A stretch of 64,000 nt of DNA from Gulosibacter massiliensis (GTDB lineage Bacteria > Actinomycetota > Actinomycetes > Actinomycetales > Microbacteriaceae). The number at the start of each line of letters is the position of its first letter. The first letter of the stretch is position 1. The stretch spans positions 17 to 64,016 of the forward strand of contig CALRMP020000003.1 in assembly GCA_943369205.1 (NCBI GenBank). Direction: 5' to 3'. The notes beneath the pieces were generated by a model that saw only the letters and a list, made by a program, of their open reading frames with translations, did no database searches and was not told where the DNA came from. This document shows, in pieces, positions 18,859 through 41,017 of the stretch. Position numbers and translations under genes: made by a program.

Positions 18859-19182
18859 TCACCCGGCCTGGCTTCCGAGCTCGATGAGGATCACGCCACC
18901 CACGATCGCTGCGACCCCCAGTGCCATCAGCCAGGTGAAGGGTTCGCGAAAGAGTAGTCGACCCGCGATGGCCGTGAGCACAACGCCGCAGGCTGTCCAA
19001 ATGCCGTAGGCGACGCCGATCGGCATTCCCGCCTGGAGGGAAAACGACAGCGCGGTGAAGGCAATGATGTAGCCACCGATGGTGGGAATGAGCCAGATCC
19101 ACCGCTTCTTCGACGCCATGCGCAGAGAAAGCGTCGCGCCGACCTCGGCGCCAATGGCAATCGCGAGAAACACCCAGCTCAT
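18859..19182 (-). CDS. SMR-family small multidrug/cation exporter subunit
   Basis: 107 aa with 4 TMs and a TM1 Glu (LAIAIGAEVGATLSLR); the overall pattern is EmrE/SugE-like. Confidence 0.9.
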   Translation of the reverse strand: MSWVFLAIAIGAEVGATLSLRMASKKRWIWLIPTIGGYIIAFTALSFSLQAGMPIGVAYGIWTACGVVLTAIAGRLLFREPFTWLMALGVAAIVGGVILIELGSQAG

Positions 19183-19577
19183 TGTTGATTACTCGCTTCC
19201 GAAACGGCGGCGAGCGCGCGAGCTCGCTGCAAACCCAACTCCACACACAGAACGCCGATGATGATCAGGACGATTCCGGCAAACATGACGGGCGTGAGTG
19301 GATCGCCGAATAGCAGGTGCGCGAAGACGGCGGTCAGGAGGACTCCGCACGCTCCCCAGATTCCGTAGGCCACGCCGACGGGCATTCCCGCAGCGAGCAC
19401 AAGGCCTAAGAGAGCGAGCGAGGTCGTGTAGCCGATGACGACGACCACAAAGAAGGCGGGAGTCGTTTGGGCGGCGCTCAGCGAGAGCGAGGCGGTCACC
19501 TCTACCGCGATCGCGAGCGCCAGAATTGCCCCAGCTCGGCCCCACAGGGGAGTTCGGGGGGTGGTCGAGACCGTCAC
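19179..19577 (-). CDS. SMR-family exporter subunit (paired with 18859-19182)
   Basis: The GTG start (complement of 19575-19577) overlaps the upstream stop (GTGA). The TM1 Glu is in LALAIAVEVTASLSL. A 4-nt overlap joins it to the next SMR gene. The start is uncertain; the track ORF extends to 19646. Confidence 0.8.
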   Translation of the reverse strand: MTVSTTPRTPLWGRAGAILALAIAVEVTASLSLSAAQTTPAFFVVVVIGYTTSLALLGLVLAAGMPVGVAYGIWGACGVLLTAVFAHLLFGDPLTPVMFAGIVLIIIGVLCVELGLQRARALAAVSEASNQQ

Positions 19578-21916
19578 GAGGTTTCCGACCTTACGGGCTT
19601 GTGATGGATGATCGTGCCGGCCGCACGCGGCGGCTCCACGACACACGACTCAACACTCCCGTGCCGGAAGGAAACCGTCACGACAGTGTCTTCGGGCGCG
19701 TGGAGTCGAAAGTCGACGTCGATCTCGTCGGGCCACGCGGGAAGGACGTGTAGGGAGCCGTCGACCTCCTGGAGCAGCATCTCCTGAACGCCGATCATGC
19801 CGCTCCCGCCCCAGTTGTGGTCGGGGGTCCAGTCGTGGCCCGGTCCCCAGAAGGCTGGGAATCGCAGGGGCCCGTCCGTGAGCTTGAGGCGTGCAATGCG
19901 GTGCGCTTCTTCGGTGAGGCCGAGTCGCGCAGCGAAGATTCCGTCTTGGTGCCACGAGATGTGGTCGCGCTGGCCGTCAATGTCTTCCGGGGCCGCGTAG
20001 GTCGCCCGTGCAATCTCGATGTCTGGGCGCCCCACGCCATGGTCGGCATACGGGAACACTCCGTAGAGCTGCGGGAGCTCGACATTCATGACATCGGACC
20101 ACCCGGCAGCAGGCGCCAGCACGTCGACTCCGTCCACCGTCCGTCGTGCGGGGGGAGGAACCGTGGCGAGCAGTCCGCGATAGTACTCGGCATGTGAGTC
20201 GTCGATGAGCGGACGCGCGTGTCCAAGAAGTGCCTCGAGCACGGAGCGCAGTCCAACCACGACGTCCGTGGGGTTGATCGCGTCTTTGTAGGTCTCAAGC
20301 GCGGTTGACGGAGAGATCACCAAGTGGCCGTCCAGTGACAACTCGCGGCCCGTGACCGAACGATGCCGCATGCGATAGTGCTCGTCGAAAAAGCGAACGC
20401 TCGCGTCGATAAAGGGCAGGTAACTGCGGATCTCGAGGCCGGAGTAACGATGAGCTTCGAGCATGAGGTAGCTCATTTCGAGCTGCGTTGAGTAGTGGTA
20501 GCGAACCCAGGGGCGGGCAAGCTCAGTCGGATCAAAGAATGGCTGGCGCGGATAGTGGTCGCCCGGCTCATGGTCGCGGGGCGATTCCCACCCCCACTCG
20601 TAGCTGATCGGAAGCCCCGAGTCATCGAGCTGCTCGGCGAACGCGACTCCGCCGTGGCCCCACAGTTCGTGCGTCCGCATCATCGCGTTGTCGAGCGCAC
20701 GCCGGTAGAACTCGAACTGCGGAAGAGTGAGCTCGACGTCTCCGTTCTTCAGCATCGGCCAGTGCACGAGTCGTTGATTCTGGCCGGTGATGCTCCCTCC
20801 GCCCCAGATTCGGAAGTCGGGAGTGGTCACACCGAATTCGTGCCCGGCGACGCTGTGCACAGCATCCATCGTGAAGAGTCCGCCATTGAACTTGGTCGGG
20901 AAGCCTCCGTGCGGGTTGCAGCCCAGCAGATAGCGAAACAGTGCGAAGTTCCGACCGATCTGCCAGTCGGGGTCTTCCGGTTGAGCAGGGCCCGGGCGAA
21001 CCTCGATCTCGCTGCGCTCCCAGAACTCCTGCCAGTAGCGGCGTGCCTCTCTGTCGGAGGCTTCTCGCTGAGCGTGGCTCGACACCGCTCGTGCGTGCGC
21101 TTCCGTGATGAACGTGTGGGGATCCGCCACGCGGTCATCATGCAAAGCGACCGTCAACGAGTGCCGAACGGCCGCCGGAGCCCGCAGCACCCAGGCGTGA
21201 AAGGGAACCTCAGCGTAGCTGCCGTCGTGTTCTGAGTGTGGCGTGAACCCTGGTCCGCTCATGACTCCACCGAATGCGCGGTCACGTTGTGGGTCCCAGA
21301 GATCATCGAGACGGTGCCCAAGACCTTGCAGGGTCGCGGACTGCACGAAGGAATTCGACTCGTCATTCCGGTGGAAGAAGACGACGGCGTCGTCGCTGAC
21401 GAGCACCTGGTCGGCGCGAGTAATGATGTCGTCTGGCTGCCCGAGTGCGCTGAAGCAGGATCGCCGTTGTCGATCGGGAACGATCCGATCGCGAGTGCGC
21501 CACGACTCATAGGCAGCGTCGACGGCGATCGGTTGCGACGCCTCCACGTCGACGTAGATGACGGGAGACCTGACGGCGCACCAAATGTCAACTCGTGTGC
21601 GTGAGCCGTCAGCGTCGACGCCTTCGATGCTCACGCGCCCCGCGTGAAGGTCGAGTCGTTGGGAAAAACGAGTCGCTTCGGGCGTGAACGGATTCGGGTC
21701 AAGGGTTAGGGCAACCCGTCCGAGCTTGAGCATGAGGTTGTTCTCGTCGAAGCTTCCGCTCCGGTCGATCGCGAAGCGGATCGCGCCGCCCTCCACCCAC
21801 ACAACGAGCCCGACGGAGTGCCCGCCACACGGCATGGCACCGCCCGAGTCCTCGGAAGGGCTGGCCCATTCGACATCAAACCTGCCGCTGCGTACGGCAC
21901 CTTCGCTCCTGCTCAC
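19574..21916 (-). CDS. Large putative glycoside hydrolase (DUF5703-N / GH95-like fold)
   Basis: 780 aa. The N-terminus (GGHSVGLVVWVEGGAIRFAIDRSGSFDENNLMLKLGRVALTLDPNPF) resembles DUF5703_N. The central GGSITGQNQRLVHWPML resembles the GH95 N-x-N...YWP motif. Confidence 0.55.
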   Translation of the reverse strand: MSRSEGAVRSGRFDVEWASPSEDSGGAMPCGGHSVGLVVWVEGGAIRFAIDRSGSFDENNLMLKLGRVALTLDPNPFTPEATRFSQRLDLHAGRVSIEGVDADGSRTRVDIWCAVRSPVIYVDVEASQPIAVDAAYESWRTRDRIVPDRQRRSCFSALGQPDDIITRADQVLVSDDAVVFFHRNDESNSFVQSATLQGLGHRLDDLWDPQRDRAFGGVMSGPGFTPHSEHDGSYAEVPFHAWVLRAPAAVRHSLTVALHDDRVADPHTFITEAHARAVSSHAQREASDREARRYWQEFWERSEIEVRPGPAQPEDPDWQIGRNFALFRYLLGCNPHGGFPTKFNGGLFTMDAVHSVAGHEFGVTTPDFRIWGGGSITGQNQRLVHWPMLKNGDVELTLPQFEFYRRALDNAMMRTHELWGHGGVAFAEQLDDSGLPISYEWGWESPRDHEPGDHYPRQPFFDPTELARPWVRYHYSTQLEMSYLMLEAHRYSGLEIRSYLPFIDASVRFFDEHYRMRHRSVTGRELSLDGHLVISPSTALETYKDAINPTDVVVGLRSVLEALLGHARPLIDDSHAEYYRGLLATVPPPARRTVDGVDVLAPAAGWSDVMNVELPQLYGVFPYADHGVGRPDIEIARATYAAPEDIDGQRDHISWHQDGIFAARLGLTEEAHRIARLKLTDGPLRFPAFWGPGHDWTPDHNWGGSGMIGVQEMLLQEVDGSLHVLPAWPDEIDVDFRLHAPEDTVVTVSFRHGSVESCVVEPPRAAGTIIHHKPVRSETS

Positions 21917-22884
21917 TGCCGAGCCTCCTCCGTCTGGTTTCTTTGCGCTGTGGTGCGCCGGTTCTCCAGCGCACGCACGAGTGCCGTGGTCGATGCCATC
22001 AGGTCACTCGCGGGCGGTTGCGATGGCGCTCCGGTTCGAATGGCGTCGACGATCGCTCGGAGCAGACCGGCGTCGATGGGGTCGCGCTCTTCGCGGCGAG
22101 TTCCCGCGGCGGTGGTGACCTCGATCGTGCGGGCGATTCCGTCGACCGCAAGAAGCCCCGCGGTTCCGACGATGCGAAGTTCATCCCGGCCCCACGGCTC
22201 GCCGGGGGTCTTCAAGTAGTCAACGACCACGCTCGCGATAGCGCCGTCATCGAATTGGGCGCTCACGATCGCAGCCATCCGCATGTCGCTCTCCGCGGGA
22301 TCCCCCGCGGTCGTTTCCAGGACGCTCACCGAGTGGATCGCCTGGCCTGTCACCATGCGCGCGACGTCGAGCCCGTATCCCGCGGACTGGAGAACCAGCC
22401 CACCCGTGAGTGATTCGTTGGTTGGCCGCCACGGTGCCCACGGGTACGAGCGGTGCGTCGTCACCAGCACCACCTCGCCGATCTCGCCCGCGGCGACGAT
22501 CTCACGCACGCGGCGGTAGGGCTCATCGAAGAACGTCGTCGCTCGCTCCCAGAGCCCCCCGGGGCTTGCCGCTGCCGCCGCGGCCAGACGCGCGAGATCG
22601 ACGGTGGTCGTGGCAGCGGGCCGTTCGATGATCACGTGGCACCCCGCCTCCAAGGCGATGATCGCAAGATCGACTTGCAGCGATCGGGGTGCGACATCCA
22701 CCGCAACGAGGCGTGTTGTCGGCTCTGCGCAGATCTCGGCAGCGCGAGCTCGAAGGTGCGTGACATCACCGAGGGTCGCATCCACTCGCGCGGTGATGTG
22801 CGCCCCGGCAACCGCGACGTCGTGCTCTGTCGGCTGGTGCCCGCCGACGCCCAGCAGGGCGAGACCAATGGATTCGGAACTCAC
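21913..22884 (-). CDS. Divergent Gfo/Idh/MocA-like oxidoreductase
   Basis: 323 aa. It has a weak Rossmann motif (LALLGVGGH), IERP in place of EKP, and a C-terminal alpha/beta domain pattern. It has 4-nt overlaps on both sides. Confidence 0.6.
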   Translation of the reverse strand: MSSESIGLALLGVGGHQPTEHDVAVAGAHITARVDATLGDVTHLRARAAEICAEPTTRLVAVDVAPRSLQVDLAIIALEAGCHVIIERPAATTTVDLARLAAAAAASPGGLWERATTFFDEPYRRVREIVAAGEIGEVVLVTTHRSYPWAPWRPTNESLTGGLVLQSAGYGLDVARMVTGQAIHSVSVLETTAGDPAESDMRMAAIVSAQFDDGAIASVVVDYLKTPGEPWGRDELRIVGTAGLLAVDGIARTIEVTTAAGTRREERDPIDAGLLRAIVDAIRTGAPSQPPASDLMASTTALVRALENRRTTAQRNQTEEARQ

Positions 22885-23882
22885 GAATTCGCTCCACGAA
22901 GCGCGTCAAGAATCGTCACGACGTTCACAATCGCCTCAGGGTCGACCAGCTCATCGACTGATTCGCCCCGAGCGGCGCGTCGCAAGATATCCCACTGGTA
23001 ACCCGACTCTCGCTGAACCTCTCGGTGCTCGACGACGCGGTGACCATCCACGACCGCGGAGACGGAGAGGGAGACCGTGTCGCCCTCGACAACTCCAATG
23101 TCTCGACGCACCGTGCCACGCTCGAAGCTGACTTCGAGCGACAAACGATACGGCTGACCGTCATCGATGCAGAACGACGAGTACACGGTTCCGATCGTGC
23201 CGTCGGCGTGCATGAGAAGGACGGCAGCGTTGTCACTCGTCGGGCGCCCCGTGAACACTCGTGACGCGACGACGTGCGTTTTCTCGACGGGGCCAAAGAG
23301 CCGACCGATGTCGGCGAAGAGGTAGATGCCGAGGCGCGTCAGTGGTGCAGCCGGCACGCGATCGGGGTCGTCGTACCAACTGCCGTCCGCGGTCTCGCGA
23401 TAGCTGCACCAGGTTGACGCGTGGTACCCGACGGGGCGTCCGAGATTGAGCCGAGTGATCCACTCGTCGATCACTCGGATGTCGGCCGACGGCGTCGGAG
23501 TCGGAGAGTTGACCAACACGGGAACGCCTGCATTGCGAGCTGCATCGAGGGCGCGCCGAGCTGCCGCGACAGACGTCTCGAACGGCTTGGTCGTCATGAC
23601 GGGCATTCCCGCCGCGACGCACCGTTCGACAAGCGGCCCTCGACCATCAGGGCCGACCATGAGCGCGACGGCTTCGATTCGATCGTCCGCCAGGATGGCG
23701 TCGAGGTCGTCGTATACGGCGACGTCGAATTCGGCAGCCACCTCACGGGCGACCTCCTGATTGAGATCACACACGCCGACGAGCTCGCACTCGAGCGCAC
23801 CGGGCCCCGAGCAGATCTCATTCTCAATCAGCCACCGGCCGAATCCCAGACCGACGACGGCGATGCGCAGTCGATCGGTCAT
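22881..23882 (-). CDS. Gfo/Idh/MocA-family oxidoreductase
   Basis: MTDRLRIAVVGLGFGRWLIE is followed by MTTKPF (EKP-like); 333 aa. Confidence 0.85.
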   Translation of the reverse strand: MTDRLRIAVVGLGFGRWLIENEICSGPGALECELVGVCDLNQEVAREVAAEFDVAVYDDLDAILADDRIEAVALMVGPDGRGPLVERCVAAGMPVMTTKPFETSVAAARRALDAARNAGVPVLVNSPTPTPSADIRVIDEWITRLNLGRPVGYHASTWCSYRETADGSWYDDPDRVPAAPLTRLGIYLFADIGRLFGPVEKTHVVASRVFTGRPTSDNAAVLLMHADGTIGTVYSSFCIDDGQPYRLSLEVSFERGTVRRDIGVVEGDTVSLSVSAVVDGHRVVEHREVQRESGYQWDILRRAARGESVDELVDPEAIVNVVTILDALRGANS

Positions 23883-26359
23883 GGTCTCGCCGCCCGCAGC
23901 TCGATGCCCTCAAGAGTGCCGCCGAGTAGCTCGAGCTCTTCACGCGTTACGCCATCCGCGTCGAGCGCGCGGTGGTAGATGCCCCAGCCCGTGCCGGCCG
24001 CAAAGAAGCACGAGAACGTGTCTCCCTCAAGCCGAGGGTCGAACGACAGCCATCCTTCGCGCGCGTTCATGGCGAAACCGCTGAGCGCCACCAGAACCCC
24101 GTAGCTCGCGAGTGATCGTGCGTAGTGGTGACCACATTCGACTTCGTTCCACGGGTTGCGTCGCACACCGTCGTGGCGTTCGCGTGTTGTGCGGACCAGC
24201 GTGAGTGCTTCATCGACGAAGCCCTCATAGATGAGGTGGGTCGCTACCTGGTACTCGATGCCGGTCCACACTTCGTCCGAGTAGGGGAACGGCAAACGCG
24301 GCCGCCCGCCGTCGGGCCAGGTGCAGAGCACGAGGCCCGACTCGTCGTTGAGTGCATACGTGCGCTGCGGATTGTGATGACGCGCGAACGACGAAAGGTA
24401 ATTGTGGTCGAACACGGCCTTAACCGCCCCGGCGACATGCTCACGCGGAAGGACGTATCCGAGCCCTGCGAGGTGGGCCAGTGTCTGCCCAAATACCTGA
24501 TCGGCAAGGCAACCACGACCGTATTGATAGCGAGCCGAGTCGACGTCGTCAATGGCCTGGATGTAGTACTCGCCACCCCACAGCAACTCGTCCGTGCGTC
24601 TCGTTCCTCGCTCGAAGGCCTCCCGATATCGTGTTGCACTTTCATCGTCTCCGAGGTGACGTGCGAGCTCTTCCCCTGCGCGCAGAGCCGCCAAGAAGAT
24701 GGAATTCACCATCGAGTTGGGCCCGTGGAAGTCAATGTCGTAGGTGTTGAACTGATCCGTGTCGAGAACGCCATCTCCGTCGGAATCCCAGCGGCTGAAA
24801 GCGTAGTCAAGAGTGGATTGCGCTGCCGGCCACACCTCGGCCAGAAACGCGTCGTCGCCAGAGATCCGCCACTCGCGATAGAGCCGCACGAGGGTACCCA
24901 GCTGGCCGTCTGCGGCGGGAACGTGATCGTGTCCTGGCATTCCCCAGGGCCGATACGAGCGGAAATTCATCTTGCCGTCAGCATCTGTCTCGACGAGGTA
25001 TTCGTTGCGACGCATCTGCATCTCGAGCTCGGGGAACAAGTAGGCGACGGTCTGCGCATAGTTCCACACGTGCGTGCACGTGCCCTCACAGCATCCTTCT
25101 TCATCGAAGCAGCCCTCCCACGCGAGAAACTGGCCGTCATCGAGCCAGATGCACGTGGGGCTCCGCACGACCGTGACCATGGCGCTCACCGCGTCGATCA
25201 CCTGCCACGGCAGAGTCGAGGAGGCCATGGCTCGGCGGAAGCCGCGAGAGGACGTCTCGAGATGTGTGAGGTTGTCGATCGTGTGACGCACAACGGCCCA
25301 CGCATCATCGAAACGCGCGTAACGCTTGCGGACAACGGGATATTCACCGACTGGAAGATGGTCGGTGTCGATAGCTTTTCCGCGGTAGTCGGCATCGTAC
25401 ATTCGGCGACTCCACGAGCGCACTCTCTGCGGAAAGTGCCACGCGAGCTGAAACTCGAAGGTAGCCGTCTCGCCCGGGGCGATCACATTGTGGATCGCGA
25501 GGGAACCGGTCTGATCGCCACTGACGTCTTTGGTGTCCTTCTGTGCGTAGGTTGATTCGGCTTCCAGGCGCCCGTCTGTGCAGAGGTCGTCCCAGAGGTC
25601 TTGAAGACCGTCCCACCAGCCGCCACGCAACCAACTGCGCTTGTGGCTGACGTCGGTCGCCGTCGTGGTCAGCGACATCGTGCCGTAGTAGAGGCTTTCC
25701 TTTGGCAGGTCTTTCGGTTGGAAAAACAGACCGCGAATGACACCGTCATCTCGGTACTCGTTGAGGTTCTCGCTCGCCGAATCGAAGTCTTGCCAGGTGT
25801 GACGGTGGTAGTCGATGAGGGAGGTCATGTTGCCGAGTGATCCCACGACTGAGACATCCACGGGCTCACGTGAGGTGTTGCGCACGTGGTACCGGATCAG
25901 TGCGACCGGAAGGCCCGAGGCGTCCGCATCGAGAGGGACGAAAGGCGTGAACGACTCCATCGTGACCTCGACCGGCATCTCGGAGTCGCGCAAGTCAACG
26001 GTAAAGAATGGGTACTCACCGTAGGCGACCGATGACTCGAATCGCGGCAGCCCCGCAACCTCGTGGTCGACGAAGCCGCGCGCTTGCGAGAACGGGGGAG
26101 TGAGCTGCGACTCAAGCACCTTGGCAAGGTGCGTTCCCGCAGCTGTCGCGACGCGGATCGCGAAGAAGGAGTTCGGGTTGTAATTCCTCTTGCCAGGAGT
26201 ATCGAAAATCTCCCAGTCCTTGAGTTGCCCGCGGGCGCCGACCGAGACATTGCCCGTTCCGATTCCGCCGAGAAGGAAGGCGACTTGGTCGGCGGTTCCG
26301 GGAAACCTGCGCGGCTCTCGCTGCTCGCGAAGCTCGGAGTGGGAGGAGGGAATCGTCAT
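23879..26359 (-). CDS. GH116-family glycoside hydrolase (GBA2-type beta-glucosidase family)
   Basis: 826 aa. The N-terminal FLLGGIGTGNVSVGARGQLKDWEIFD is the GH116 N-domain signature. The C-terminal DQFNTYDIDFHGPNSMVNSIFLAAL looks like the DUF608 catalytic domain. Confidence 0.85.
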   Translation of the reverse strand: MTIPSSHSELREQREPRRFPGTADQVAFLLGGIGTGNVSVGARGQLKDWEIFDTPGKRNYNPNSFFAIRVATAAGTHLAKVLESQLTPPFSQARGFVDHEVAGLPRFESSVAYGEYPFFTVDLRDSEMPVEVTMESFTPFVPLDADASGLPVALIRYHVRNTSREPVDVSVVGSLGNMTSLIDYHRHTWQDFDSASENLNEYRDDGVIRGLFFQPKDLPKESLYYGTMSLTTTATDVSHKRSWLRGGWWDGLQDLWDDLCTDGRLEAESTYAQKDTKDVSGDQTGSLAIHNVIAPGETATFEFQLAWHFPQRVRSWSRRMYDADYRGKAIDTDHLPVGEYPVVRKRYARFDDAWAVVRHTIDNLTHLETSSRGFRRAMASSTLPWQVIDAVSAMVTVVRSPTCIWLDDGQFLAWEGCFDEEGCCEGTCTHVWNYAQTVAYLFPELEMQMRRNEYLVETDADGKMNFRSYRPWGMPGHDHVPAADGQLGTLVRLYREWRISGDDAFLAEVWPAAQSTLDYAFSRWDSDGDGVLDTDQFNTYDIDFHGPNSMVNSIFLAALRAGEELARHLGDDESATRYREAFERGTRRTDELLWGGEYYIQAIDDVDSARYQYGRGCLADQVFGQTLAHLAGLGYVLPREHVAGAVKAVFDHNYLSSFARHHNPQRTYALNDESGLVLCTWPDGGRPRLPFPYSDEVWTGIEYQVATHLIYEGFVDEALTLVRTTRERHDGVRRNPWNEVECGHHYARSLASYGVLVALSGFAMNAREGWLSFDPRLEGDTFSCFFAAGTGWGIYHRALDADGVTREELELLGGTLEGIELRAARP

Positions 26360-27234: not shown

Positions 27235-27809
27235 GAAGAGGCTCCCAGCATGTCTAGAGCTTTGCGCGACTCGACAGTGAGGCACCACTCATCAAGCGTT
27301 ACGGCGAACTGAAGATGCGGGATCGCGTCGGAATCTCCTACGCGACCGAGGGCTTTGGCGGCGGCCGCCTTCACCACGAAGTCCTCGTCCTCGCCGCGCA
27401 AGACGTCGTGCAGCAGCTTCCTCCAGGGGCCGTCTGCTGTGCCAATCGCGTAGACGGCGAGGATGCACGCTTGCCGCACCCGCCCGCGGCATTGCCAGTC
27501 ATCACGCTGGGTGGCCGTCGGCGGTGTGGCCCAAATGGCCGTTGTCGACACGAGCTGTTCTGCGGCGCGAGTGTCGTCGAAACTGCCGACGAACTCGAGA
27601 ACCTGGGGCTGACCATAGAGATCGCGCGAATCCTCGATCTCCATCATGGAACGCAAGGTGTCGAGCCACGTCGCGTCGCCGGTCTCGCCCATTCCGATCG
27701 CGGCCGCGTAGCGCACGCGCCAATTCGGGTGGCTGGAGTTCTCGGCCATCGCGTCCGGATCGATCAGCACGCGTTCCATGAGCTCGTAATCCCCGCCGAT
27801 CTCGCTCAT
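27231..27809 (-). CDS. HEAT-repeat protein
   Basis: 192 aa. Repeats of the type NWRVRYAAAIGMGETGD and DFVVKAAAAKALGRVGDSDAIPHL fit PBS-lyase/HEAT-like repeats. No catalytic motif was recognised. Confidence 0.6.
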   Translation of the reverse strand: MSEIGGDYELMERVLIDPDAMAENSSHPNWRVRYAAAIGMGETGDATWLDTLRSMMEIEDSRDLYGQPQVLEFVGSFDDTRAAEQLVSTTAIWATPPTATQRDDWQCRGRVRQACILAVYAIGTADGPWRKLLHDVLRGEDEDFVVKAAAAKALGRVGDSDAIPHLQFAVTLDEWCLTVESRKALDMLGASS

Positions 27810-30094
27810 GCGTCACCCCCCACGCCCACCTCAAGGTTGTATGTCCGGTGATTCGTGATCACGCGCACGTGGCGGCCTGACCTCTCCACCGACTCAATGC
27901 GCTCTTCCTCCACGGAGTAGCCAATGCCCATTCCGCCGGTCAGGCCGATCGTGCCCCATCCTTCTCCGTCGTAATGGCCGCGCGGCACCGAGAGAGCGAC
28001 GACGACCTCGACGCGATCTGACGTGTCGAAGCGCTCAGGAATACGAACACGGGGGGCGATCAGTTCGCCCGAGACGCGGAAGGCGGAGAGGTCGACCTCG
28101 TCGCCGTCGAAGAAGAGACGCGCATCGTGCATTCCGACGGGCAAGCGCAACCAGCTCGCCTCACGTTTCTTGGCGAGCACGATGCGGTACCACCACCTTT
28201 GTGTGGCGGGCAGGTCCGCTTCGAGGTAGGCAGGCAACTGCATCGCGACGCGAGTCGAGGTGGCGCTCAGAGCCACTACGGCCTCGTCGTAGGTGAGATT
28301 GGCCTCGATGTCGGGGACGACAGACACTGGCCCGACGGACGCTTCTGCCTCGAACACTCGCGAGGTCAGAGCGACGAAAATGCGTTCAACGTCGGTCGCC
28401 TCGGAAGTGAAGTCAATGAGATCACTCCCGTCGTCTGGCTTCGCCGGTACGTGGTCGGCTCTCTCGATGAGCACCGTGGATGCTGCGTCGACGTCGATGA
28501 GCTGCAGCGTTACCCCCTCCGGTGTCTGAACGCGTGCTCCTCCGGGTATCAGCGATGCGCCAGGCCGCATGACGAAACGCGAGGTGACGCGATGCGGTAG
28601 CTGGGTGCGAACGCGGTCAACGATGGTCACGATGCCGCCCTCGTGGAGCTGTGTACGGCGAGACACCTCCAGCACATCTGGCATGTTCTCGCGATAGATC
28701 GGAGTGACGTCAGCCCACACCCATTCGCCACGATCGTGGGCACTCGCTGACGTCTGAGGGCCATCACCGTGAGCCCGCATCCCTTCACGGCCGTCGAGAA
28801 GGATGACGGAGTGAGCGCCAGCGCACCCGTCTCCGAAGTTGTATCGATGGGAACTGTCCATGGCGAGGAAGGAGACTTCGCGCCACGTGTCGTCGAACTG
28901 AAACCTGTGGCGTGCGCCCTCCGTTGGCGACCCGTCTGCCGAAATCGGAACGCGATAGCCGCCGAACAGCACGGCGTTCGGGTTGACATGTGCCCGGGTC
29001 GGATAAACGGGCTCTGATTCGTCCCACATCTGTACGACGTAGCGATCCCCGTCGAGAGCCGAGAGGGCAGCTCCAACCTCGGGCTCGAACCAGTTGCGCC
29101 ACGCGGGATCATGCTGTGTCGAGCCGTGGGATGGCCACCAAATGAGCGTCCACACGAGGTCGTCGTAGGCCCAGCCGATTCCGATGTCATAGGTCCAAAT
29201 GACCTCGCGATCGAGCACCTGAAAGAACAGATCTTCACCGGCTCGCCGGGCGCCATAGGCGAGGCATGACCGCTCCCCAAACTGATATCCATAGTTGTCC
29301 CACGGCAGCAACAGCCCGCCCGGCATGAACGAACGCGCCATCATGCGCAACACTGCGACGGGCTCCGCGCCGTCGCGCTCGGTGGGGGTCTCGAGTACGC
29401 TCGTCAGCCCGCCGACGCGTTCCAACACCTCGACGGCGAGCGGGACAGCTGGCGCAACCACGCAGTTCATGTAGTCGCTGCCCTCGCCGGTGTACCCACT
29501 ACGGGGAAGGTCCGAGAGCATGCTCGGGAGTCGGCGGAGGCCATCGCGCTTCATGATCTCGGCCATTCGTGATGGCTTCTCGCCGCCCGAGAAGAGATGG
29601 CCGACGATTGTCGACGAGAGCACCAGTGACAGTGCCTGATTGTCGACACACTCGGGCTCGGGCTTGTCTCTCATGCCGTAGTAGAAGTTGACGAAGTGGT
29701 ACTCCACGAGCTTCTGACCGATGGTGTCTGCCTCGTCGGGGGTGTACGCCCCGATCGAGCACAGCCACTGGAAGTACAGCGCGACCTTTGCGTGAGGAAA
29801 CGCGAAGCACCAGAAGTGAAACTGGAGTCCGGTCGAGAACGACATGGGGTCAAGCTTCGAGAGATAGGCGTCGATGATGTGACGGGCCCGAGCGATGTCA
29901 CCGGAGTCGCGAGTGATGACGGCGACGAAAGGGACAAACCAGCCAAAGTCGTCTGGTGCTCGCCGCGCGCTATCGCGCAGCATTGTCCACAGTTCGAATC
30001 GACGACCGTCGGCTGGCCCGAGCGACAGCACGTCTGCGCGGAGGTCGCCAACGTTATCGAGCAGGAATGGTTCGGCGTTGACCATGTGTCTCAT
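27806..30094 (-). CDS. Large uncharacterised protein, possibly heparinase II/III-like (alpha-toroid plus beta-sandwich)
   Basis: 762 aa with no signal peptide. The N-terminal part is helical and Trp/Phe-rich. The central AHVNPNAVLFGGYRVPISADGS sits where heparinase II/III proteins have H-x-H-x-D...D-x-G. The ORF is solid; the function is tentative. Confidence 0.45.
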   Translation of the reverse strand: MRHMVNAEPFLLDNVGDLRADVLSLGPADGRRFELWTMLRDSARRAPDDFGWFVPFVAVITRDSGDIARARHIIDAYLSKLDPMSFSTGLQFHFWCFAFPHAKVALYFQWLCSIGAYTPDEADTIGQKLVEYHFVNFYYGMRDKPEPECVDNQALSLVLSSTIVGHLFSGGEKPSRMAEIMKRDGLRRLPSMLSDLPRSGYTGEGSDYMNCVVAPAVPLAVEVLERVGGLTSVLETPTERDGAEPVAVLRMMARSFMPGGLLLPWDNYGYQFGERSCLAYGARRAGEDLFFQVLDREVIWTYDIGIGWAYDDLVWTLIWWPSHGSTQHDPAWRNWFEPEVGAALSALDGDRYVVQMWDESEPVYPTRAHVNPNAVLFGGYRVPISADGSPTEGARHRFQFDDTWREVSFLAMDSSHRYNFGDGCAGAHSVILLDGREGMRAHGDGPQTSASAHDRGEWVWADVTPIYRENMPDVLEVSRRTQLHEGGIVTIVDRVRTQLPHRVTSRFVMRPGASLIPGGARVQTPEGVTLQLIDVDAASTVLIERADHVPAKPDDGSDLIDFTSEATDVERIFVALTSRVFEAEASVGPVSVVPDIEANLTYDEAVVALSATSTRVAMQLPAYLEADLPATQRWWYRIVLAKKREASWLRLPVGMHDARLFFDGDEVDLSAFRVSGELIAPRVRIPERFDTSDRVEVVVALSVPRGHYDGEGWGTIGLTGGMGIGYSVEEERIESVERSGRHVRVITNHRTYNLEVGVGGDA

Positions 30095-30948
30095 AGCTTG
30101 ACGGCCCCGGCCGTCAAGCCGCTCACGAAGAAGCGCATCGAGACGAAGAAGGCCACCAGCAGAGGAAGAGCCGCGAGGGCATAGCCGGCAAGCAACATTC
30201 CATAGTCGAGCCCGGCCGCAGACGAGAGCTTGAAGATCCCCACCGTGATCGTTCGCATCGCAGGGTCAGTCAGTGTCACGAGCGGCCAGATGAAGTCGTT
30301 CCAGATGAAGAGGATCACGTTCAGCGACATCAGCGCCACCATCGGGCGAAGCAACGGCAGAGCGAGGTGCCAGAAGATCCGAAGCTCGCTCGCACCATCC
30401 ATGCGCATCGCCTCGAAGAGCTCGCGCGGCTGGCTGTCGACGAAGGTCTTCATGACGAACACCCAGAACGGCTGGGAGGTGCCCATGCAGAACAAGGCAA
30501 TCACGAAAGGCGTGTTCAGGAGGCCGAGGTTCACCGCCAGCACGAACGAGGGCACCAGGAGCATGACGCCGGGCATGAACATCTTGATGAACAACAACAT
30601 GAACAGCGGCCGGCGGAGCGGGAACCGCAGCGCACTGAACGCGTAGCCCGCGATCGTCGCAGCGCCGACCGTGAGCACCACGCTCAGCGCGGCGTACACG
30701 ATCGTGTTGACGTAGTACGGCGCGATGTAGACAAAGGCCCGCGCATAGTTGTCCACATTGAGGGGCAATGTCGGAAGGAAGAAGTTGTCGAGGATCTGGT
30801 CGAGGTCCTTGAACGACCCGATGATCGTGAGATACAGCGGGAACAGCAACATCAGAACGATGGCTGCCATGAAGAGGTTCTTGAATACTCCGGCCGCTTC
30901 GAACCGGACCCGCCGAGGACGCCGCCGGGGTGCTTGCACAGTGGTCAT
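30091..30948 (-). CDS. Carbohydrate ABC transporter permease (MalG/LplC-like)
   Basis: 285 aa with 6 TMs and an EAA-type loop (LFEAMRMDGASELRIFWHLALP). Confidence 0.9.
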   Translation of the reverse strand: MTTVQAPRRRPRRVRFEAAGVFKNLFMAAIVLMLLFPLYLTIIGSFKDLDQILDNFFLPTLPLNVDNYARAFVYIAPYYVNTIVYAALSVVLTVGAATIAGYAFSALRFPLRRPLFMLLFIKMFMPGVMLLVPSFVLAVNLGLLNTPFVIALFCMGTSQPFWVFVMKTFVDSQPRELFEAMRMDGASELRIFWHLALPLLRPMVALMSLNVILFIWNDFIWPLVTLTDPAMRTITVGIFKLSSAAGLDYGMLLAGYALAALPLLVAFFVSMRFFVSGLTAGAVKL

Positions 30949-30951
30949 CCG

Positions 30952-31974
30952 TCAGTCCCGGTTCTTCAGGAGCTTGAGGGCGGTCAAGGAGAGCGTGAGC
31001 GCAGCGATGAACAGCATGAGGCCCAGCGCGTAGGCGTAGCCGTAGTCGGGCGCTCCGGTGTTCGGGAACGCCTTGAAGTACATCAAGAGACCGGGAGTAA
31101 TGAGGCCGTTGTGAACGGACGGGTTGTAGAAGACCAGCTGCACCGCGTAGGTCGTGATCGCCGTGCCAATGACCCCGATGATGATGAGGCGAAACTGGCC
31201 GAGGATCAACGGGAACTCGAGGTCGAAGAACTTCCGAATGGGGCCAACGCCATCGAGCTTCGCGGCATCCCAGACTTCGTCACCAATCGCCTGAATGCCG
31301 CCGAGGTAGATGAGCACGGTGTTGGCCGTGACGAAGGGGATTCCCGTGAGAAGAATCGTCCACTTGATGAGGTCGGGGTCTCCCAAGAACGGGACGCGCC
31401 CGAAACCGAGATCGTCGAGAAGCGTATTGATGGCCCCAAAGTCGTAGCCCAGGATGAAGATCCACAGCAGGGTGAAGACAAGAGCAGGAACCACCATGGG
31501 TAGGACGATGAGAACGCGGTAGAAGTACTGCAATCGTGCCCCGCGGATGCGGAACAGTACGACGGCGGTCACGATCGACGGCAGCATCAAGACGAGTGCG
31601 GCTACCAGGAAGAACATCATGTTTCCCAGCGACACGTGGAACTCCGGATCAACCAGCACACGTCGGAAGTTGTCGAAGCCGACAAACACCAACTCGGGGT
31701 TTCGATTTGTCCACGTGAAGAATGACCGCACGAACCCGTCGAGTGTCGGAATCCAGTCGAAAATGATGTTGCTGATGATCGCTGCTGAGATGAACGCCAA
31801 CCCGATCCAGTTCGATGAGCTCCGCAGGCGCTTTTTGACCTGACGCGGACTGTCATCGGGGTCAAGGTCGAGAATCAGGTACTGAACTCTTCGCCAAAAC
31901 GAGCGGGGGACGCCAGCGGACTGACGCCCCCCGTCGCTAGGGGCAGAGATGTTCGTCTCAGCCAAGTGGCTCAC
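30952..31974 (-). CDS. Carbohydrate ABC transporter permease (MalF/LplB-like)
   Basis: 340 aa with an EAA-type loop (VWDAAKLDGVGPIRKFFDLEFPL). Confidence 0.9.
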   Translation of the reverse strand: MSHLAETNISAPSDGGRQSAGVPRSFWRRVQYLILDLDPDDSPRQVKKRLRSSSNWIGLAFISAAIISNIIFDWIPTLDGFVRSFFTWTNRNPELVFVGFDNFRRVLVDPEFHVSLGNMMFFLVAALVLMLPSIVTAVVLFRIRGARLQYFYRVLIVLPMVVPALVFTLLWIFILGYDFGAINTLLDDLGFGRVPFLGDPDLIKWTILLTGIPFVTANTVLIYLGGIQAIGDEVWDAAKLDGVGPIRKFFDLEFPLILGQFRLIIIGVIGTAITTYAVQLVFYNPSVHNGLITPGLLMYFKAFPNTGAPDYGYAYALGLMLFIAALTLSLTALKLLKNRD

Positions 31975-31976
31975 TC

Positions 31977-33623
31977 TTAACGCTGCTCCGTCAGGTCGCC
32001 GGTCATGTTGTGGTAGTAGGTGTTGTACAGGTTCTCGCGCAATTGCGCGAACGCGAGAGCCCGCTCCTTACCTTCCTTCTCCTCTTCCGTGGCCGCATCA
32101 AGCTGCGCTTGCGCGTCAGCAGTTGAGGCAGCCAGGGTAGCCGAGTCGGGGATATCGGCGGCCCACTCCGTGAACGCAACCTGTTCGACGAGTTCCTCCG
32201 CCGTAAGGTCGCCGTTCAAGTACTGAGTGAAGACGACATCCCACCCAGCGCGACCCCACTCGATCACGGTGTAGCCGAGGACCTCTTGTGCGAATCCACC
32301 CTCAGGCTCACCGACAACGAACGGTTCGAGGCTCTCGACGAGTTCGACTCCGACCACAGGAGAGAACGACTGAGCGGTCTCGACGTACTTCGCCTGCTGC
32401 TCAGCGCTCGACAGGAACTGCAGGAAGTCGATAGCAACTTCGAGCTTCTCCGGGTCGTCCGCGAGGGTCTTGTTGAGCGTGAAGCCATACTCGTGGCGAC
32501 CAGCCCCACTCGCTGTTGCCGGACGGTCGACCGCGTACGGTGCAGCCGCTTCAGCCTCATCCGAGGTGATCCAACCCTTGTCCACGGCGTAGTCGAGGGT
32601 GTCCGCTCCGAAGTACGGCAACTGGAAGAGGCCGTATCCGTCGGGGAAGGTCGCGTCGCTGAGGGCACTGATGAGCGAGCCGTAGTCGGAGAAGCTCGTC
32701 TGCATCAACGCAGCCTTACCACTCGCGAACGTGAGGGTCTCGGTCTCGGGCGAGTTCTCCGTCCAGCTGTCCTGGAAGTAGCTCACGTGCTGCTTGATGA
32801 GCGCGAACATCGCTGGGTAGTACGGAAGCGAGGTCAGTGGCATCTCGGAGCCACCCGCGTAGTTGGTCAGCGTGTAGATCTTGTCGAAGAACAGGTCGCC
32901 CGACAGATCCGTGTTGCTGAACTCTTCCGCGAAGAACCGGTCGGCATACCGCTCACCGAATCCGTATCCGATCTGCGACACCTTTCCTCCGACGTCGCTT
33001 GAGCCGGCGATGGGGGCGATGTCAGCGTTGCCGTCAAGCGCCTCCATCCACTCGAAGAACTGCTTGAAGTCCTGAGGAGTCTCGTCGGGGTTCAGCCCGG
33101 CGTCCTGGACGATCTTCTTGTTGAAGATGTACATCCGGCCTGCGAAAACCTCCGGGTTTCCATCGTTCGGCACGAAGAGAATCGAGTTGGCGTTCACCCC
33201 GTTGTCTTCAACAGGGAACGCACCTTCGCCGCCCACGAAGGTGTCCATCCACAGTTCGCCTTCGCTGTAGGCGCTCTCGGCCGCGAGGTACTCGCGCAGG
33301 TCGAGAAGGTTGGGCGCGAAGGTCAAGCGTTGGCCGGACTTCATCTGAATGATGTCGGGGGCCGTGCCGCCAGCGAATCCGGTCTCGAGGATGCTGCCGT
33401 ATGAGGCGTCCTCTTCGTTCTTGATCGTGATCCGAACATCGGGGTTCGCAGCTTGGTAGTCGTTGATGGCCTGCTGGTAACCCTCGTAGTAGTTGGTGAG
33501 GGAATCAGGCCCGTGCCACGTGAGCAACTCGAGCGTCACTCGCGGTTCGGGCGCCGTGCATCCGCTCAGAGCTGTGAGCGCTAATGCAGCGCTGACAGCG
33601 AGAGCGATGGGCTTCTTGTTCAT
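31977..33623 (-). CDS. Large extracellular sugar-binding lipoprotein (LplA-like family-1 SBP)
   Basis: The signal peptide and lipobox are MNKKPIALAVSAALALTALSGC. The 548-aa size is typical of oligosaccharide-type SBPs. Confidence 0.9.
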   Translation of the reverse strand: MNKKPIALAVSAALALTALSGCTAPEPRVTLELLTWHGPDSLTNYYEGYQQAINDYQAANPDVRITIKNEEDASYGSILETGFAGGTAPDIIQMKSGQRLTFAPNLLDLREYLAAESAYSEGELWMDTFVGGEGAFPVEDNGVNANSILFVPNDGNPEVFAGRMYIFNKKIVQDAGLNPDETPQDFKQFFEWMEALDGNADIAPIAGSSDVGGKVSQIGYGFGERYADRFFAEEFSNTDLSGDLFFDKIYTLTNYAGGSEMPLTSLPYYPAMFALIKQHVSYFQDSWTENSPETETLTFASGKAALMQTSFSDYGSLISALSDATFPDGYGLFQLPYFGADTLDYAVDKGWITSDEAEAAAPYAVDRPATASGAGRHEYGFTLNKTLADDPEKLEVAIDFLQFLSSAEQQAKYVETAQSFSPVVGVELVESLEPFVVGEPEGGFAQEVLGYTVIEWGRAGWDVVFTQYLNGDLTAEELVEQVAFTEWAADIPDSATLAASTADAQAQLDAATEEEKEGKERALAFAQLRENLYNTYYHNMTGDLTEQR

Positions 33624-33877
33624 GCATGCCTCCTTGAATGCGGTTGGGGGTGAAGCGTTTGCCCGGGCACGAAGCCCAGGCCAATCCGTGAATCGGGAAT
33701 GCGGTTTCCCAGAGTTTCGGGTAGGAATCGATCGTTGTCAAGGACTCGTTGAATCTCGTGACAATTTCGCGACCCGCGCTTGTGAGGGGAGTGCAAAGAT
33801 GGCATTGTATGCGATCAGAAAGCGTTTACCCACAGTCGGGCATCAACCCGAGTTCGTACCACTGGAGGAACCTCACG

Positions 33878-35080: not shown

Positions 35081-35084
35081 CGCC

Positions 35085-37156: not shown

Positions 37157-37167
37157 ACTCTCGGGCG

Positions 37168-38242: not shown

Positions 38243-38289
38243 CAGCGACCGGGCGCTGTCGGGCCCGGGCCCTATGGGGCCGGTCGCTG
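38243..38289. terminator. Hairpin between convergent LacI and SDR genes
   Basis: CAGCGACCGG (38243-38252) pairs with CCGGTCGCTG (38280-38289). The 27-nt loop contains GGGCCCGGGCCC. The right arm lies inside the SDR C-terminal tail codons. Confidence 0.4.
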
Positions 38290-39917: not shown

Positions 39918-39970
39918 CGGTCTCCTCCCGCAGGCAATACAGCCACGGTATCCGGCAAGAGTGTCGATGG

Positions 39971-41008: not shown

Positions 41009-41017
41009 GGCGCCAGT

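Follow-up and report, generated by a model that had tools for sequence, protein, structure and literature searches.

Two described systems come closest to the locus analysed here. The D-arabinan polysaccharide utilisation locus (PUL) of Microbacterium arabinogalactanolyticum (Shimokawa et al. 2023) encodes the GH116 enzyme ExoMA2, the GH172 enzyme ExoMA1 and the GH183 enzymes EndoMA1/2; ExoMA2 is an exo-beta-D-arabinofuranosidase and the founder of GH116 subfamily 4, in which His446 and Arg483 set the recognition of arabinofuranose (Araf) apart from the glucosidases (PMC10509167). In the breakdown of rhamnogalacturonan-II (RG-II), DUF5703 proteins constitute GH139, a family of 2-O-methyl-alpha-L-fucosidases, according to the paper that deposited the structures 9HYQ and 9HMB and that describes GH95 and GH139 as mechanistically related fucosidase/galactosidase families (PMC12282258). 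Homologues of both ExoMA2 and the GH139 enzymes are encoded in a 12-gene operon on the minus strand of Gulosibacter massiliensis (Microbacteriaceae; assembly GCA_943369205.1, contig CALRMP020000003.1). The operon spans positions 18859-33623 of a 64,000-nucleotide stretch (positions 17 to 64,016 of the contig), which is referred to below as the window.

We read this operon, with moderate confidence, as a compact catabolic unit, probably LacI-repressed, for an imported, decorated and most likely uronic-acid-containing oligosaccharide. A preliminary description made from the sequence had left the substrate as a glycoside or oligosaccharide; genomic contexts favour the decorated oligosaccharide over a small glycoside. 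The overall logic, in which ABC import is followed by cytoplasmic trimming, cleavage and oxidation, is that of a familiar Gram-positive polysaccharide-utilisation operon. In contrast, for the core enzymology (an unclassified heparinase-fold family with a HEAT-repeat partner, an amidase of the nitrilase superfamily and two novel Gfo/Idh/MocA subfamilies) no characterised counterpart was found in structures, family libraries or the literature. The preliminary description had recognised no described pathway in this combination, and we likewise found no characterised pathway that matches the whole locus; a literature search returned nothing combining heparinase II, carbon-nitrogen hydrolase, Gfo/Idh/MocA, GH116 and HEAT.

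The sole characterised locus with a close homologue is the D-arabinan PUL, whose host belongs to the same or a closely related family. Both loci combine a lipoprotein substrate-binding protein (SBP) and two permeases with exo-glycosidases that lack signal peptides, in Gram-positive style, and their GH116 enzymes are homologous with the same nucleophile, acid/base, His and Arg. The D-arabinan PUL, however, has no heparinase-fold protein, HEAT partner, carbon-nitrogen (CN) hydrolase, Gfo pair, GH139 or small multidrug resistance (SMR) genes, all of which are present here, and unlike that PUL the core of the present operon is found without GH116 in other phyla. The genes of the operon, in order of transcription, are as follows.

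31977..33623, minus strand: substrate-binding lipoprotein, 548 aa, of a CUT1-type sugar ABC importer (Pfam SBP_bac_1, SBP_bac_8)
30952..31974, minus strand: ABC permease 1, MalF/UgpA-like, 340 aa (BPD_transp_1; NCBIfam GlcT/UgpA/MalF-like matches)
30091..30948, minus strand: ABC permease 2, MalG/UgpE-like, 285 aa (BPD_transp_1; GlcU/UgpE/MalG-like matches; start uncertain by 26 codons)
27806..30094, minus strand: 762-aa cytoplasmic protein with a heparinase II/III-type fold, putative exo-acting uronate lyase/dehydratase/epimerase (AlphaFold2 and Foldseek)
27231..27809, minus strand: HEAT-repeat protein, 192 aa, partner of the 762-aa protein and probably its subunit or chaperone (HEAT_2, HEAT_PBS)
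26356..27234, minus strand: CN hydrolase, a nitrilase-superfamily amidase of 292 aa, predicted to be active (CN_hydrolase, E 3e-19)
23879..26359, minus strand: GH116, closest characterised relative ExoMA2, probable exo-beta-D-arabinofuranosidase or closely related furanosidase (Pfam and homology)
22881..23882, minus strand: Gfo/Idh/MocA oxidoreductase 1 (Gfo1), 333 aa (Pfam; orthologue motifs GLxFGxW and TTKP; solved relatives distant)
21913..22884, minus strand: Gfo/Idh/MocA oxidoreductase 2 (Gfo2), 323 aa, with a divergent N-terminus (Pfam)
19574..21916, minus strand: GH139 glycosidase (DUF5703), probable 2-O-methyl-alpha-L-fucosidase-type exo-enzyme (DUF5703_N and homology to 9HYQ)
19179..19577, minus strand: SMR subunit A (SMR-A), 132 aa, Lys/Arg at both termini (Multi_Drug_Res; Qac/MdtJ/EbrB-like, below cut-off)
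18859..19182, minus strand: SMR subunit B (SMR-B), 107 aa, Lys/Arg in loops 1 and 3 (Multi_Drug_Res; sequence read)

Gene order and junctions

The preliminary description had listed 12 minus-strand open reading frames (ORFs) in a row, and the ORF list of the window agrees with it at every coordinate. Its account of the junctions is likewise correct: the gap between the SBP and permease 1 genes is +2 nt, that between the two permease genes is +3 nt, and the following nine junctions are 4-nt ATGA/GTGA stop/start overlaps (30091-94, 27806-09, 27231-34, 26356-59, 23879-82, 22881-84, 21913-16, 19574-77 and 19179-82). Pfam bore out the labels given to the SBP (SBP_bac_1), both permeases (BPD_transp_1), the HEAT protein (HEAT_2/HEAT_PBS), the CN hydrolase, GH116 (N-terminal and catalytic domains), both Gfo/Idh/MocA proteins and both SMR proteins. 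A separate gene caller applied to the identical metagenome contig made the same calls for all covered genes except permease 2, for which the alternative start lies 78 nt (26 codons) later and gives 259 aa; the earlier start is favoured because it retains an Arg-rich cytoplasmic tail before the first transmembrane helix (TM1). Longer alternative ORFs are available for the CN hydrolase (to 27288) and SMR-A (to 19646), so that some of the starts are choices.

Overlaps of 4 nt are frequent elsewhere in the window (17154-57, 39971-74 and 42606-09) and also occur in orthologous operons; in Jiangella the junction gaps measure 4, 69, 17, -4, -8, -4, -8, -4 and -4 nt. The run of nine thus marks a very compact operon and is no oddity per se. 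The genes lie on one strand without intergenic gaps beyond the few nucleotides given, and their order is kept in other genomes. Order and overlaps support one co-linear, translationally coupled unit, and to this extent the earlier claim of a single polycistronic unit stands; a hairpin at 31904-31933 (see below) qualifies the view that the unit contains no internal signal. Scans for consensus promoters and terminators inside the operon gave counts at or under chance. No intrinsic terminator was recognised behind SMR-B, where the 70-nt convergent gap folds no better than shuffled sequences (z +0.66).

Direct reading of the sequences revealed a lipobox at the N-terminus of the SBP (MNKKPIALAVSAALALTALSGC) and no signal peptide on any enzyme of the operon. 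The SBP has no close solved relative, and a homology search gave weak N-terminal matches to generic sugar SBPs that do not reveal the ligand. NCBIfam yielded no match for the 762-aa protein, GH116 or GH139, and for the other core proteins all matches were below cut-off.

Conservation of the operon across phyla

A scan with the 762-aa protein, restricted to one genome per species, yielded 42 loci whose gene content was established by gene-by-gene tblastn. The order SBP-permease 1-permease 2-762-aa protein-HEAT-CN hydrolase-(GH116)-Gfo1-Gfo2 was found in Microbacteriaceae, other Actinomycetota, Chloroflexota (Roseiflexaceae, Anaerolineae) and Bacillota (Oscillospiraceae, Clostridia), while Lentisphaerae/Victivallales, Verrucomicrobiota and Armatimonadota retain just the pair of 762-aa and HEAT genes. 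When metagenome contigs were in turn scanned with the CN hydrolase, the full module came up again in approximately 14 loci, and exact look-ups provided more examples. Altogether the order recurs in more than 30 loci.

Cultured carriers illustrate the variation. In Jiangella mangrovi all ten genes from SBP to GH139 are present in unchanged order, again with overlapping junctions, and the SMR genes are lacking. Paenibacillus silvisoli has the same genes through Gfo2, followed by a 293-aa protein, a true GH95 and a major facilitator superfamily (MFS) transporter. The regions concerned are JACHMM010000001.1 6754700-6776988 of assembly GCA_014204975.1 for J. mangrovi and CP133017.1 4982054-5004324 for P. 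silvisoli. In Tenggerimyces flavus only the SBP, permease, permease, 762-aa and HEAT genes are present; a glucarate-dehydratase-like gene abuts them upstream and a GH172 gene lies approximately 4 kb away. Within the module GH139 is confined to Actinomycetota, and its presence at the 3' end in Jiangella and the window, against GH95 plus MFS in Paenibacillus, represents a non-orthologous replacement. The Bacillota versions have an MFS transporter between GH116 and Gfo1, together with an MtaA/URO-D-like gene. A PL8 gene lies near the module in one locus (L032), and a GH28 gene is found approximately 5 kb downstream of the 762-aa and HEAT pair in a Lentisphaerae locus. As side observations, Bacillota versions encode a protein of approximately 750-790 aa between permease 2 and the 762-aa gene (L013:7777-10017, L018:7627-9993), and this protein, like the 293-aa protein that precedes GH95 in Paenibacillus (L125:18263-19144), has no Pfam or NCBIfam match.

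The preliminary description had allowed that the genes might never be co-located elsewhere, which would have meant a chance juxtaposition. Recurrence of the order in three phyla instead indicates a conserved core with interchangeable accessories. Judged by gene content, the operon is modular and not monolithic: it consists of a wide core (the ABC importer, the 762-aa protein, HEAT, the CN hydrolase, Gfo1 and Gfo2), an optional GH116 and a lineage-specific GH139 and SMR pair. A fortuitous mosaic, in which unrelated genes without a shared substrate have been packed together by genome streamlining, would agree with the separability of these modules (the 762-aa and HEAT pair occurs alone, the CN hydrolase occurs elsewhere, and GH139 and SMR are rare) and with the commonness of 4-nt overlaps in the genome. 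Synteny disfavours it: the same 8-10-gene order is found in three phyla and more than 30 loci, with translational overlaps kept at several junctions, and we consider a mosaic highly improbable.

A heparinase-fold protein with a HEAT-repeat partner

The 762-aa protein had been treated as a blank in the preliminary description. AlphaFold2, Foldseek and a weak Pfam match identify it as a divergent heparinase II/III-fold protein. The AlphaFold2 model (pLDDT 86, pTM 0.89) comprises an (alpha/alpha) toroid, an antiparallel beta-sandwich and an extra C-terminal beta domain. In a Foldseek search with this model, the best 32 Protein Data Bank (PDB) matches were all heparinase II/III-fold lyases (PL33, PL15, PL17, PL12) or dermatan-sulfate epimerase, with E values of 7e-16 to 1e-9, TM scores of 0.41-0.67 and identities of 8-13%. 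The predicted structure thereby places the protein in the fold of the heparinase II/III-type polysaccharide lyases (PL12/15/17/21/33), and the weak Hepar_II_III_C signal covers the conserved His428...Tyr467 region.

With the PL15 enzyme Atu3025, the PL17 enzyme Alg17c, the PL33 glycosaminoglycan lyases, the PL12 heparinase III and dermatan-sulfate epimerase the protein shares the predicted toroid and beta-sandwich. Like Atu3025 and Alg17c it is intracellular, carrying no signal peptide, and is encoded behind an oligosaccharide importer. It differs from the heparinase-fold lyases in its low identity to them (8-13%), its position below the Pfam cut-off, its additional C-terminal beta domain and its HEAT neighbour. 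Placement in an existing PL family by sequence failed, a single-sequence search returning spurious lectins and a profile search reaching only E 0.22. The ulvan oligosaccharide dehydratase P29_PDnc (PMC8511951) was considered as an analogue; homology to it was not established, and it serves as an example of alternative chemistry only. At E <= 0.001, a set of 1.84 billion cluster representatives contains just 187 relatives of the 762-aa protein, and with so few relatives the profile does not appear to reach the large, populated lyase families. The 762-aa protein founds a small unclassified family.

The HEAT protein had previously been regarded as a free scaffold. It is instead a constant downstream partner, its gene adjoining the 762-aa homologue in 35 of the 42 genome loci, including those of Lentisphaerae, Verrucomicrobiota and Armatimonadota. 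It has the conserved motifs W-x-[CR]-RGR-x-x-QA and EWC, and is probably a subunit or chaperone of the 762-aa protein. We know of no described PL family with an obligate HEAT-repeat neighbour, and in a literature search none was reported for the described PL families.

A nitrilase-superfamily amidase in a carbohydrate operon

The CN hydrolase is a member of the nitrilase superfamily by both triad and fold. Its Glu44-Lys113-Cys162 triad is invariant in two sets of homologues (n=20 and n=28), and its AlphaFold2 model (pLDDT 94.6) has the alpha-beta-beta-alpha fold. The nearest folds are those of Nit2 omega-amidase, D-carbamoylase, short-chain amidases, Nesterenkonia amidase and N-carbamoylputrescine amidohydrolase, with which it shares the fold (TM 0.59-0.79) and the Glu-Lys-Cys triad. 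In contrast to these small-substrate amidases, to which it is 15-22% identical, it belongs to no NCBIfam equivalog and is encoded in a carbohydrate operon. Its repeated occurrence beside heparinase-fold proteins is unusual for the nitrilase superfamily.

This association extends beyond the module. CN hydrolases that occur without the 762-aa family (47-49% identical) lie directly beside a different heparinase II/III-like protein of approximately 1,050-1,100 aa in at least three loci (L064, L078, L129), and in two further loci (L057, L080) a heparinase II/III-like protein is encoded within a few genes of the CN hydrolase. Other neighbours of such solo CN hydrolases include GH4, Gfo/Idh/MocA, GH42, PhyH and MtaA/URO-D-like genes. 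The approximately 1,050-1,080-aa neighbours with Hepar_II_III_C were examined as possible paralogues of the 762-aa protein and rejected, as BLASTP found no similarity (E 0.4-0.8). The recurring association of the amidase clade is therefore with the heparinase fold in general, at the level of fold only.

GH116 and the question of D-arabinan

GH116 contains the N-terminal beta-sandwich domain (PF12215, E 8e-54) and the (alpha/alpha)6 catalytic domain (PF04685, E 2e-47) of its family. It aligns with ExoMA2 (PDB 8IC6) at E 4.5e-218, and its residues E415, D541, H430 and R467 correspond to Glu431 (the nucleophile), Asp557 (the acid/base), His446 and Arg483 of that enzyme. All four are invariant in 16 module orthologues. 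The protein is thus probably an exo-beta-D-arabinofuranosidase or a close furanosidase.

This similarity raises the possibility that the operon serves oligosaccharides of D-arabinan, from mycobacterial or corynebacterial arabinogalactan or lipoarabinomannan, with GH116 as the key exo-beta-D-arabinofuranosidase. Besides the alignment with ExoMA2 and its four key residues, this explanation can draw on the GH172 gene (a family of exo-alpha-D-arabinofuranosidases) that lies approximately 4 kb from the 762-aa and HEAT module in T. flavus, on the fucose/D-arabinose-isomerase-like gene that adjoins the operon, and on the host being a relative within the Microbacteriaceae. Against this, no GH183 (DUF4185) or GH172 was found among the annotated ORFs of the window, which do not include every ORF, and the text of the PUL paper names no heparinase-like, CN-hydrolase or oxidoreductase genes (PMC10509167). 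Moreover, many Chloroflexota loci have the complete core without GH116, and GH139 and GH95 play no part in D-arabinan. We consider a D-arabinan operon quite unlikely. Identity with the known D-arabinan locus was rejected: GH172 and GH183 are missing among the ORFs annotated here, the published locus is without the core genes, and the core exists without GH116.

GH139 and the question of RG-II

The protein encoded downstream of Gfo2 had been labelled GH95-like. It is instead a GH139/DUF5703 protein, matching Pfam DUF5703_N (PF18961, E 2.7e-80) and, across residues 13-764, PDB 9HYQ (E 1.2e-172). From its residue numbering we take 9HYQ to be BT0984 of the Bacteroides thetaiotaomicron RG-II degradome. 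Equivalents of Q411, N412 (the base), E561 (the acid), N639, E641, W683, D723 and N729 are retained in the window protein and in three actinobacterial orthologues, so that the whole published -1 subsite and proton relay are kept, including the Gln that shapes the methyl pocket. Of the Trp triad, W403 and W490 are kept and W162 is replaced by Leu. The full triad (W162, W403, W490), which binds the RG-II chain B oligosaccharide, occurs in just approximately 40% of GH139 (PMC12282258). The substitution therefore counts against RG-II chain B as the substrate and not against membership of GH139, and the protein is probably a 2-O-methyl-alpha-L-fucosidase-type exo-enzyme.

In comparison with BT0984, the window GH139 is homologous over its full length and shares the catalytic Asn/Glu, the methyl-pocket Gln and the Asp/Asn relay. 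Unlike BT0984 it is actinobacterial and cytoplasmic, is encoded in an ABC-importer operon and not in a SusC/D PUL, lacks one of the three substrate-binding Trp residues and is without accompanying RG-II enzymes. A literature search returned no paper naming DUF5703, and co-mentions of GH116 and GH139 only in inventories of carbohydrate-active enzymes (CAZymes).

A more specific form of our reading would have the operon act on fragments of plant RG-II or a related pectic or algal fucose-rich acidic polysaccharide, with GH139 or GH95 cutting a 2-O-methyl-fucose or L-galactose cap and the 762-aa protein cutting the galacturonate or glucuronate part. GH139 is so far known just from RG-II breakdown, and the methyl-binding residues are kept here; GH95 takes the place of GH139 in Paenibacillus; GH28, GH35 and GDSL esterases occur in the same Lentisphaerae loci as the 762-aa and HEAT pair; and the fold of the 762-aa protein is of the lyase type. 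However, RG-II breakdown requires many more enzymes than are present, with W162 one of the three Trp contacts to the RG-II oligosaccharide is lost, and most carriers are metagenome-assembled genomes without a stated plant association. Additionally, D-arabinofuranose, the substrate of the closest GH116 relative, is no RG-II sugar. Taken with both sets of observations, this specific form is unlikely.

Two oxidoreductases, an SMR pair and the question of a small glycoside

Gfo1 and Gfo2 both contain PF01408 and PF22725, corresponding to a Rossmann domain and a C-terminal alpha/beta domain. Gfo1 possesses the motifs GLGFGRW and TTKP and Gfo2 the motifs GVGGHQ and ERP, as compared with the canonical GxGxxG and EKP. 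No pairwise similarity was detectable between the two proteins, which by their sequences are members of two unrelated subfamilies, each with its own conserved motifs.

SMR-A and SMR-B both match PF00893, have a glutamate in TM1 (within AVEVTAS and GAEVGAT, respectively) and show opposite charge biases, as is the case for paired SMR proteins. Given the opposite positive-inside bias an antiparallel heterodimer is expected, and the two probably form a heterodimeric exporter of this kind. With EbrAB and MdtJI the pair shares adjacent short genes, a TM1 glutamate in each subunit and the opposite positive-inside bias; it differs from them in that its family matches are far below cut-off, it has no guanidine riboswitch or RNA leader, and it is translationally fused to a glycosidase operon. 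The guanidine-exporter (Gdx/SugE) subtype was examined and rejected: Rfam detected no riboswitch, SugE models score 25-32 bits against a 126-bit cut-off, and the genes overlap the upstream gene. Efflux had been put forward as a function of the operon. The SMR pair is indeed present; as a defining function efflux does not hold, since the pair occurs just here and in one close relative, with MFS transporters in similar places in Bacillota.

These genes also bear on an alternative in which the substrate is a small glycoside that undergoes oxidative, 3-keto-type cleavage; the Gfo enzymes would oxidise it, the CN hydrolase would handle a nitrile or amide of the aglycone, and the SMR pair would expel the toxic aglycone. 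The presence of five Gfo/Idh/MocA genes in a 30-kb island that also encodes ThuA, a xylose-isomerase-type TIM barrel and DUF993 would fit such chemistry, as would weak NCBIfam matches to glycoside and disaccharide 3-dehydrogenases and the exporters attached to the operon (SMR here, MFS in Bacillota). However, those 3-dehydrogenase matches are far under cut-off (E 1e-4 to 1e-6; cut-offs 650-750 bits), and the SMR pair is not conserved. Furthermore, the most conserved pair consists of a polysaccharide-lyase-fold protein and HEAT, often amid polysaccharide-degrading enzymes, and the large LplA-sized SBP and two exo-glycosidases indicate an oligosaccharide. We therefore regard a small glycoside as improbable.

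Proposed pathway

For the favoured reading, that of a decorated and probably acidic oligosaccharide, the following sequence of steps can be proposed. The lipoprotein SBP and the two CUT1 permeases, whose domains are evident from sequence, would import the oligosaccharide with the aid of an ATPase encoded elsewhere, as is usual for actinobacterial CUT1 systems. Cytoplasmic GH116 would then strip beta-D-arabinofuranosyl-type residues, and GH139 2-O-methyl-alpha-L-fucosyl-type residues. The 762-aa protein and HEAT would attack the uronate-containing remainder by beta-elimination, dehydration or epimerisation, and the amidase would take a small amide or carbamoyl group off the sugar or sugar acid. 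The dissimilar Gfo1 and Gfo2 may oxidise or reduce the freed sugars toward central metabolism. In the weakest step, the SMR pair, a recent add-on, might expel a cationic or toxic by-product. Enzymes of the neighbouring genes (fucose-isomerase-like; SDR and L-fuconolactonase-like; ThuA and Gfo; CoA-transferase/MaoC) could process the freed L-fucose- or D-arabinose-type sugars and acids.

Two lines of evidence converge on the nature of the substrate. Sugars of the L-galacto series, namely beta-D-arabinofuranose, (2-O-methyl-)alpha-L-fucose and L-galactose, are indicated by GH116, GH139/GH95 and the catabolic genes nearby. An acid sugar in the core substrate is suggested by the fold of the 762-aa protein, the glucarate-dehydratase-like neighbour of the module in T. 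flavus, the PL8 and GH28 genes close to it in other lineages, and the pairing of the amidase with the heparinase fold. In such an acid-sugar setting, an amidase of the small-substrate type may serve to strip a sugar acid of an amide or carbamoyl group.

Several observations weigh against this reading. Within the 762-aa protein, the Hepar_II_III_C match (E 5.5e-4, 20.0 bits) lies under the 24-bit Pfam cut-off, so that membership by sequence is not established, and the profile search against solved lyases gave no significant match (best E 0.22); Y268, Y270, H428, Y467, R142 and N152, among other residues, are invariant in the family, and the catalytic Tyr/His could not be assigned. No GH88/GH105 unsaturated-uronate hydrolase or KduI/KduD-type genes were found among the annotated ORFs of the window, not every ORF being annotated. 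Approximately 45 metagenome loci have the CN hydrolase (43-52% identical) without the 762-aa family, and the amidase is therefore not exclusive to the module. The Chloroflexota versions lack GH116 and any fucosidase; the caps are thus not part of the core substrate, and the acidic backbone then rests on fold and context. The window copy of Gfo2 carries Glu-Arg-Pro at approximately residues 91-93, a site occupied by the canonical Glu-Lys-Pro in at least 80% of orthologues. The SMR pair was found in two loci only, the window and a Microbacteriaceae metagenome-assembled genome (L003). Finally, the link to LacI rests on a short motif.

Neighbouring genes

A divergent four-gene unit on the plus strand (33878-38211) encodes a Gfo/Idh/MocA protein, DUF993 (E 4e-158), a xylose-isomerase-type TIM barrel and a LacI-family regulator. 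The closest relative (L003) retains this unit alongside the operon, whereas Jiangella and Paenibacillus do not; 3-keto-sugar or inositol-type chemistry is possible for the unit. Convergent with the operon at its downstream end, the plus-strand genes at 15347-18788 encode a ThuA-like protein, a Gfo/Idh/MocA protein and a 544-aa protein with just the C-terminal domain of L-fucose isomerase (Fucose_iso_C); a ThuA and Gfo pair, at 60% and 56% identity, also flanks the operon of Jiangella.

On the minus strand, 38272-43796 encodes a short-chain dehydrogenase/reductase (SDR), an Amidohydro_2 protein, a second LacI, a MaoC hydratase, an SBP_bac_8-like protein and a family III CoA-transferase. The Amidohydro_2 protein is L-fucono-1,5-lactonase-like (E 6e-50, below cut-off). 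The trio of MaoC, SBP_bac_8-like and CoA-transferase genes recurs directly ahead of the Jiangella operon (53-65% identity), which suggests a linked organic-acid/CoA step; in the window, the fifth Gfo gene of the island lies beyond this trio.

The G+C content of the operon and its surroundings (about 14-46 kb, positions 14000-46000) is 0.60-0.66, compared with 0.67-0.73 at the window ends. The low G+C of this sugar island and the spread of the module over several phyla are compatible with horizontal acquisition. Unrelated to the operon, two very long overlapping ORFs (1290 and 1239 aa) occupy opposite strands at 1266-5246, with a weak REase_MTES_1575 match at the C-terminus of the plus-strand ORF.

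Regulatory features

The features with a putative role in regulation are as follows.

33624..33877, no strand assigned: divergent promoter/operator region, separating the operon from the opposite Gfo-DUF993-TIM-LacI operon (operator role putative)
37168..38211, plus strand: LacI-family regulator that closes the divergent operon and may repress both divergent promoters (Pfam LacI and Peripla_BP_3)
31904..31933, minus strand: 13-bp GC-rich hairpin with UUUU behind it, located within the first 25 permease 1 codons, candidate partial terminator or mRNA stabiliser (folding and comparison)

The upstream non-coding stretch at 33624-33877 was correctly delimited at the outset, as the separate gene call starts the divergent gene at a position equal to 33878. 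A strong Shine-Dalgarno sequence, AAGGAGG, lies ahead of the SBP start. The decamer AAGCGTTTRC has 3 copies in the 64 kb against 0.12 expected: two lie in the divergent intergenic region (33653-33662 and 33820-33829) and one at the start of the fifth Gfo gene at approximately 43.9 kb (43877-43886), so that all three sit at, or just upstream of, the starts of sugar-related genes. It is possible that this motif constitutes a LacI-family operator common to the operon, its divergent neighbour and the Gfo gene near 43.9 kb. The LacI gene is kept with the locus in L003. Regulators vary by lineage: the window encodes LacI and Paenibacillus AraC, while Chloroflexota and Clostridia have an AraC-type response regulator together with a histidine kinase.

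The hairpin lies 40-70 nt into permease 1, right behind the SBP stop. The 111-nt segment that contains it (31880-31990) has a predicted dG of -51.4 kcal/mol, compared with -39.6 for shuffled sequences (z -3.25), and 0 of 200 shuffles were as stable. It is kept in four Microbacteriaceae relatives (L003, L044, L002, L105) with stem-preserving changes of G.U to G-C and one of A-U to C-G, and the corresponding position in Jiangella is taken by a different strong hairpin. Comparison by eye of this stretch of permease 1 between the window and L044 revealed several synonymous changes, and it still looks coding. In other ABC operons, stem-loops lift the expression of the binding protein over that of the permeases, and the permease 1 hairpin resembles them. 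It is accordingly a candidate for a structure that would raise SBP expression over the downstream genes, and its position suggests that expression is graded across the operon. For riboswitches or other RNA control of the leader or the SMR genes, an Rfam scan of the window was negative; its sole match was a single tRNA gene at 10301-10373 on the plus strand.

Implications for glycan catabolism

If the core is as it appears, it would comprise a new lyase-type CAZyme family that requires a HEAT-repeat partner, an unusual and possibly the first nitrilase-superfamily amidase in glycan breakdown, and a pair of unexplored sugar oxidoreductases. A bolder proposal can be formulated in which the 762-aa protein and HEAT constitute a new family of polysaccharide lyases (or oligosaccharide dehydratases or epimerases) that works in obligate tandem with the amidase, which would unmask a uronamide or carbamoylated acid sugar and so open the backbone to cleavage, the Gfo pair finishing the process. 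We hold this to be rather unlikely. Were it true, amidated acidic glycans from microbes or algae would have a route not known before, common to Actinomycetota, Chloroflexota and Bacillota and present in part in Lentisphaerae, Verrucomicrobiota and Armatimonadota.

The operon also places two very recently characterised families, GH116 subfamily 4 and GH139, in hosts and settings new to them; to our knowledge, each has essentially a single characterised member. Uncharacterised carbohydrate clusters are common, and the operon represents a solid lead for carbohydrate enzymology and no surprise. Its core forms a portable module that at least three bacterial phyla share and that three others possess in part, and the cultured carriers Jiangella mangrovi, Paenibacillus silvisoli, Paenibacillus montanisoli and Tenggerimyces flavus make the question of its function testable.

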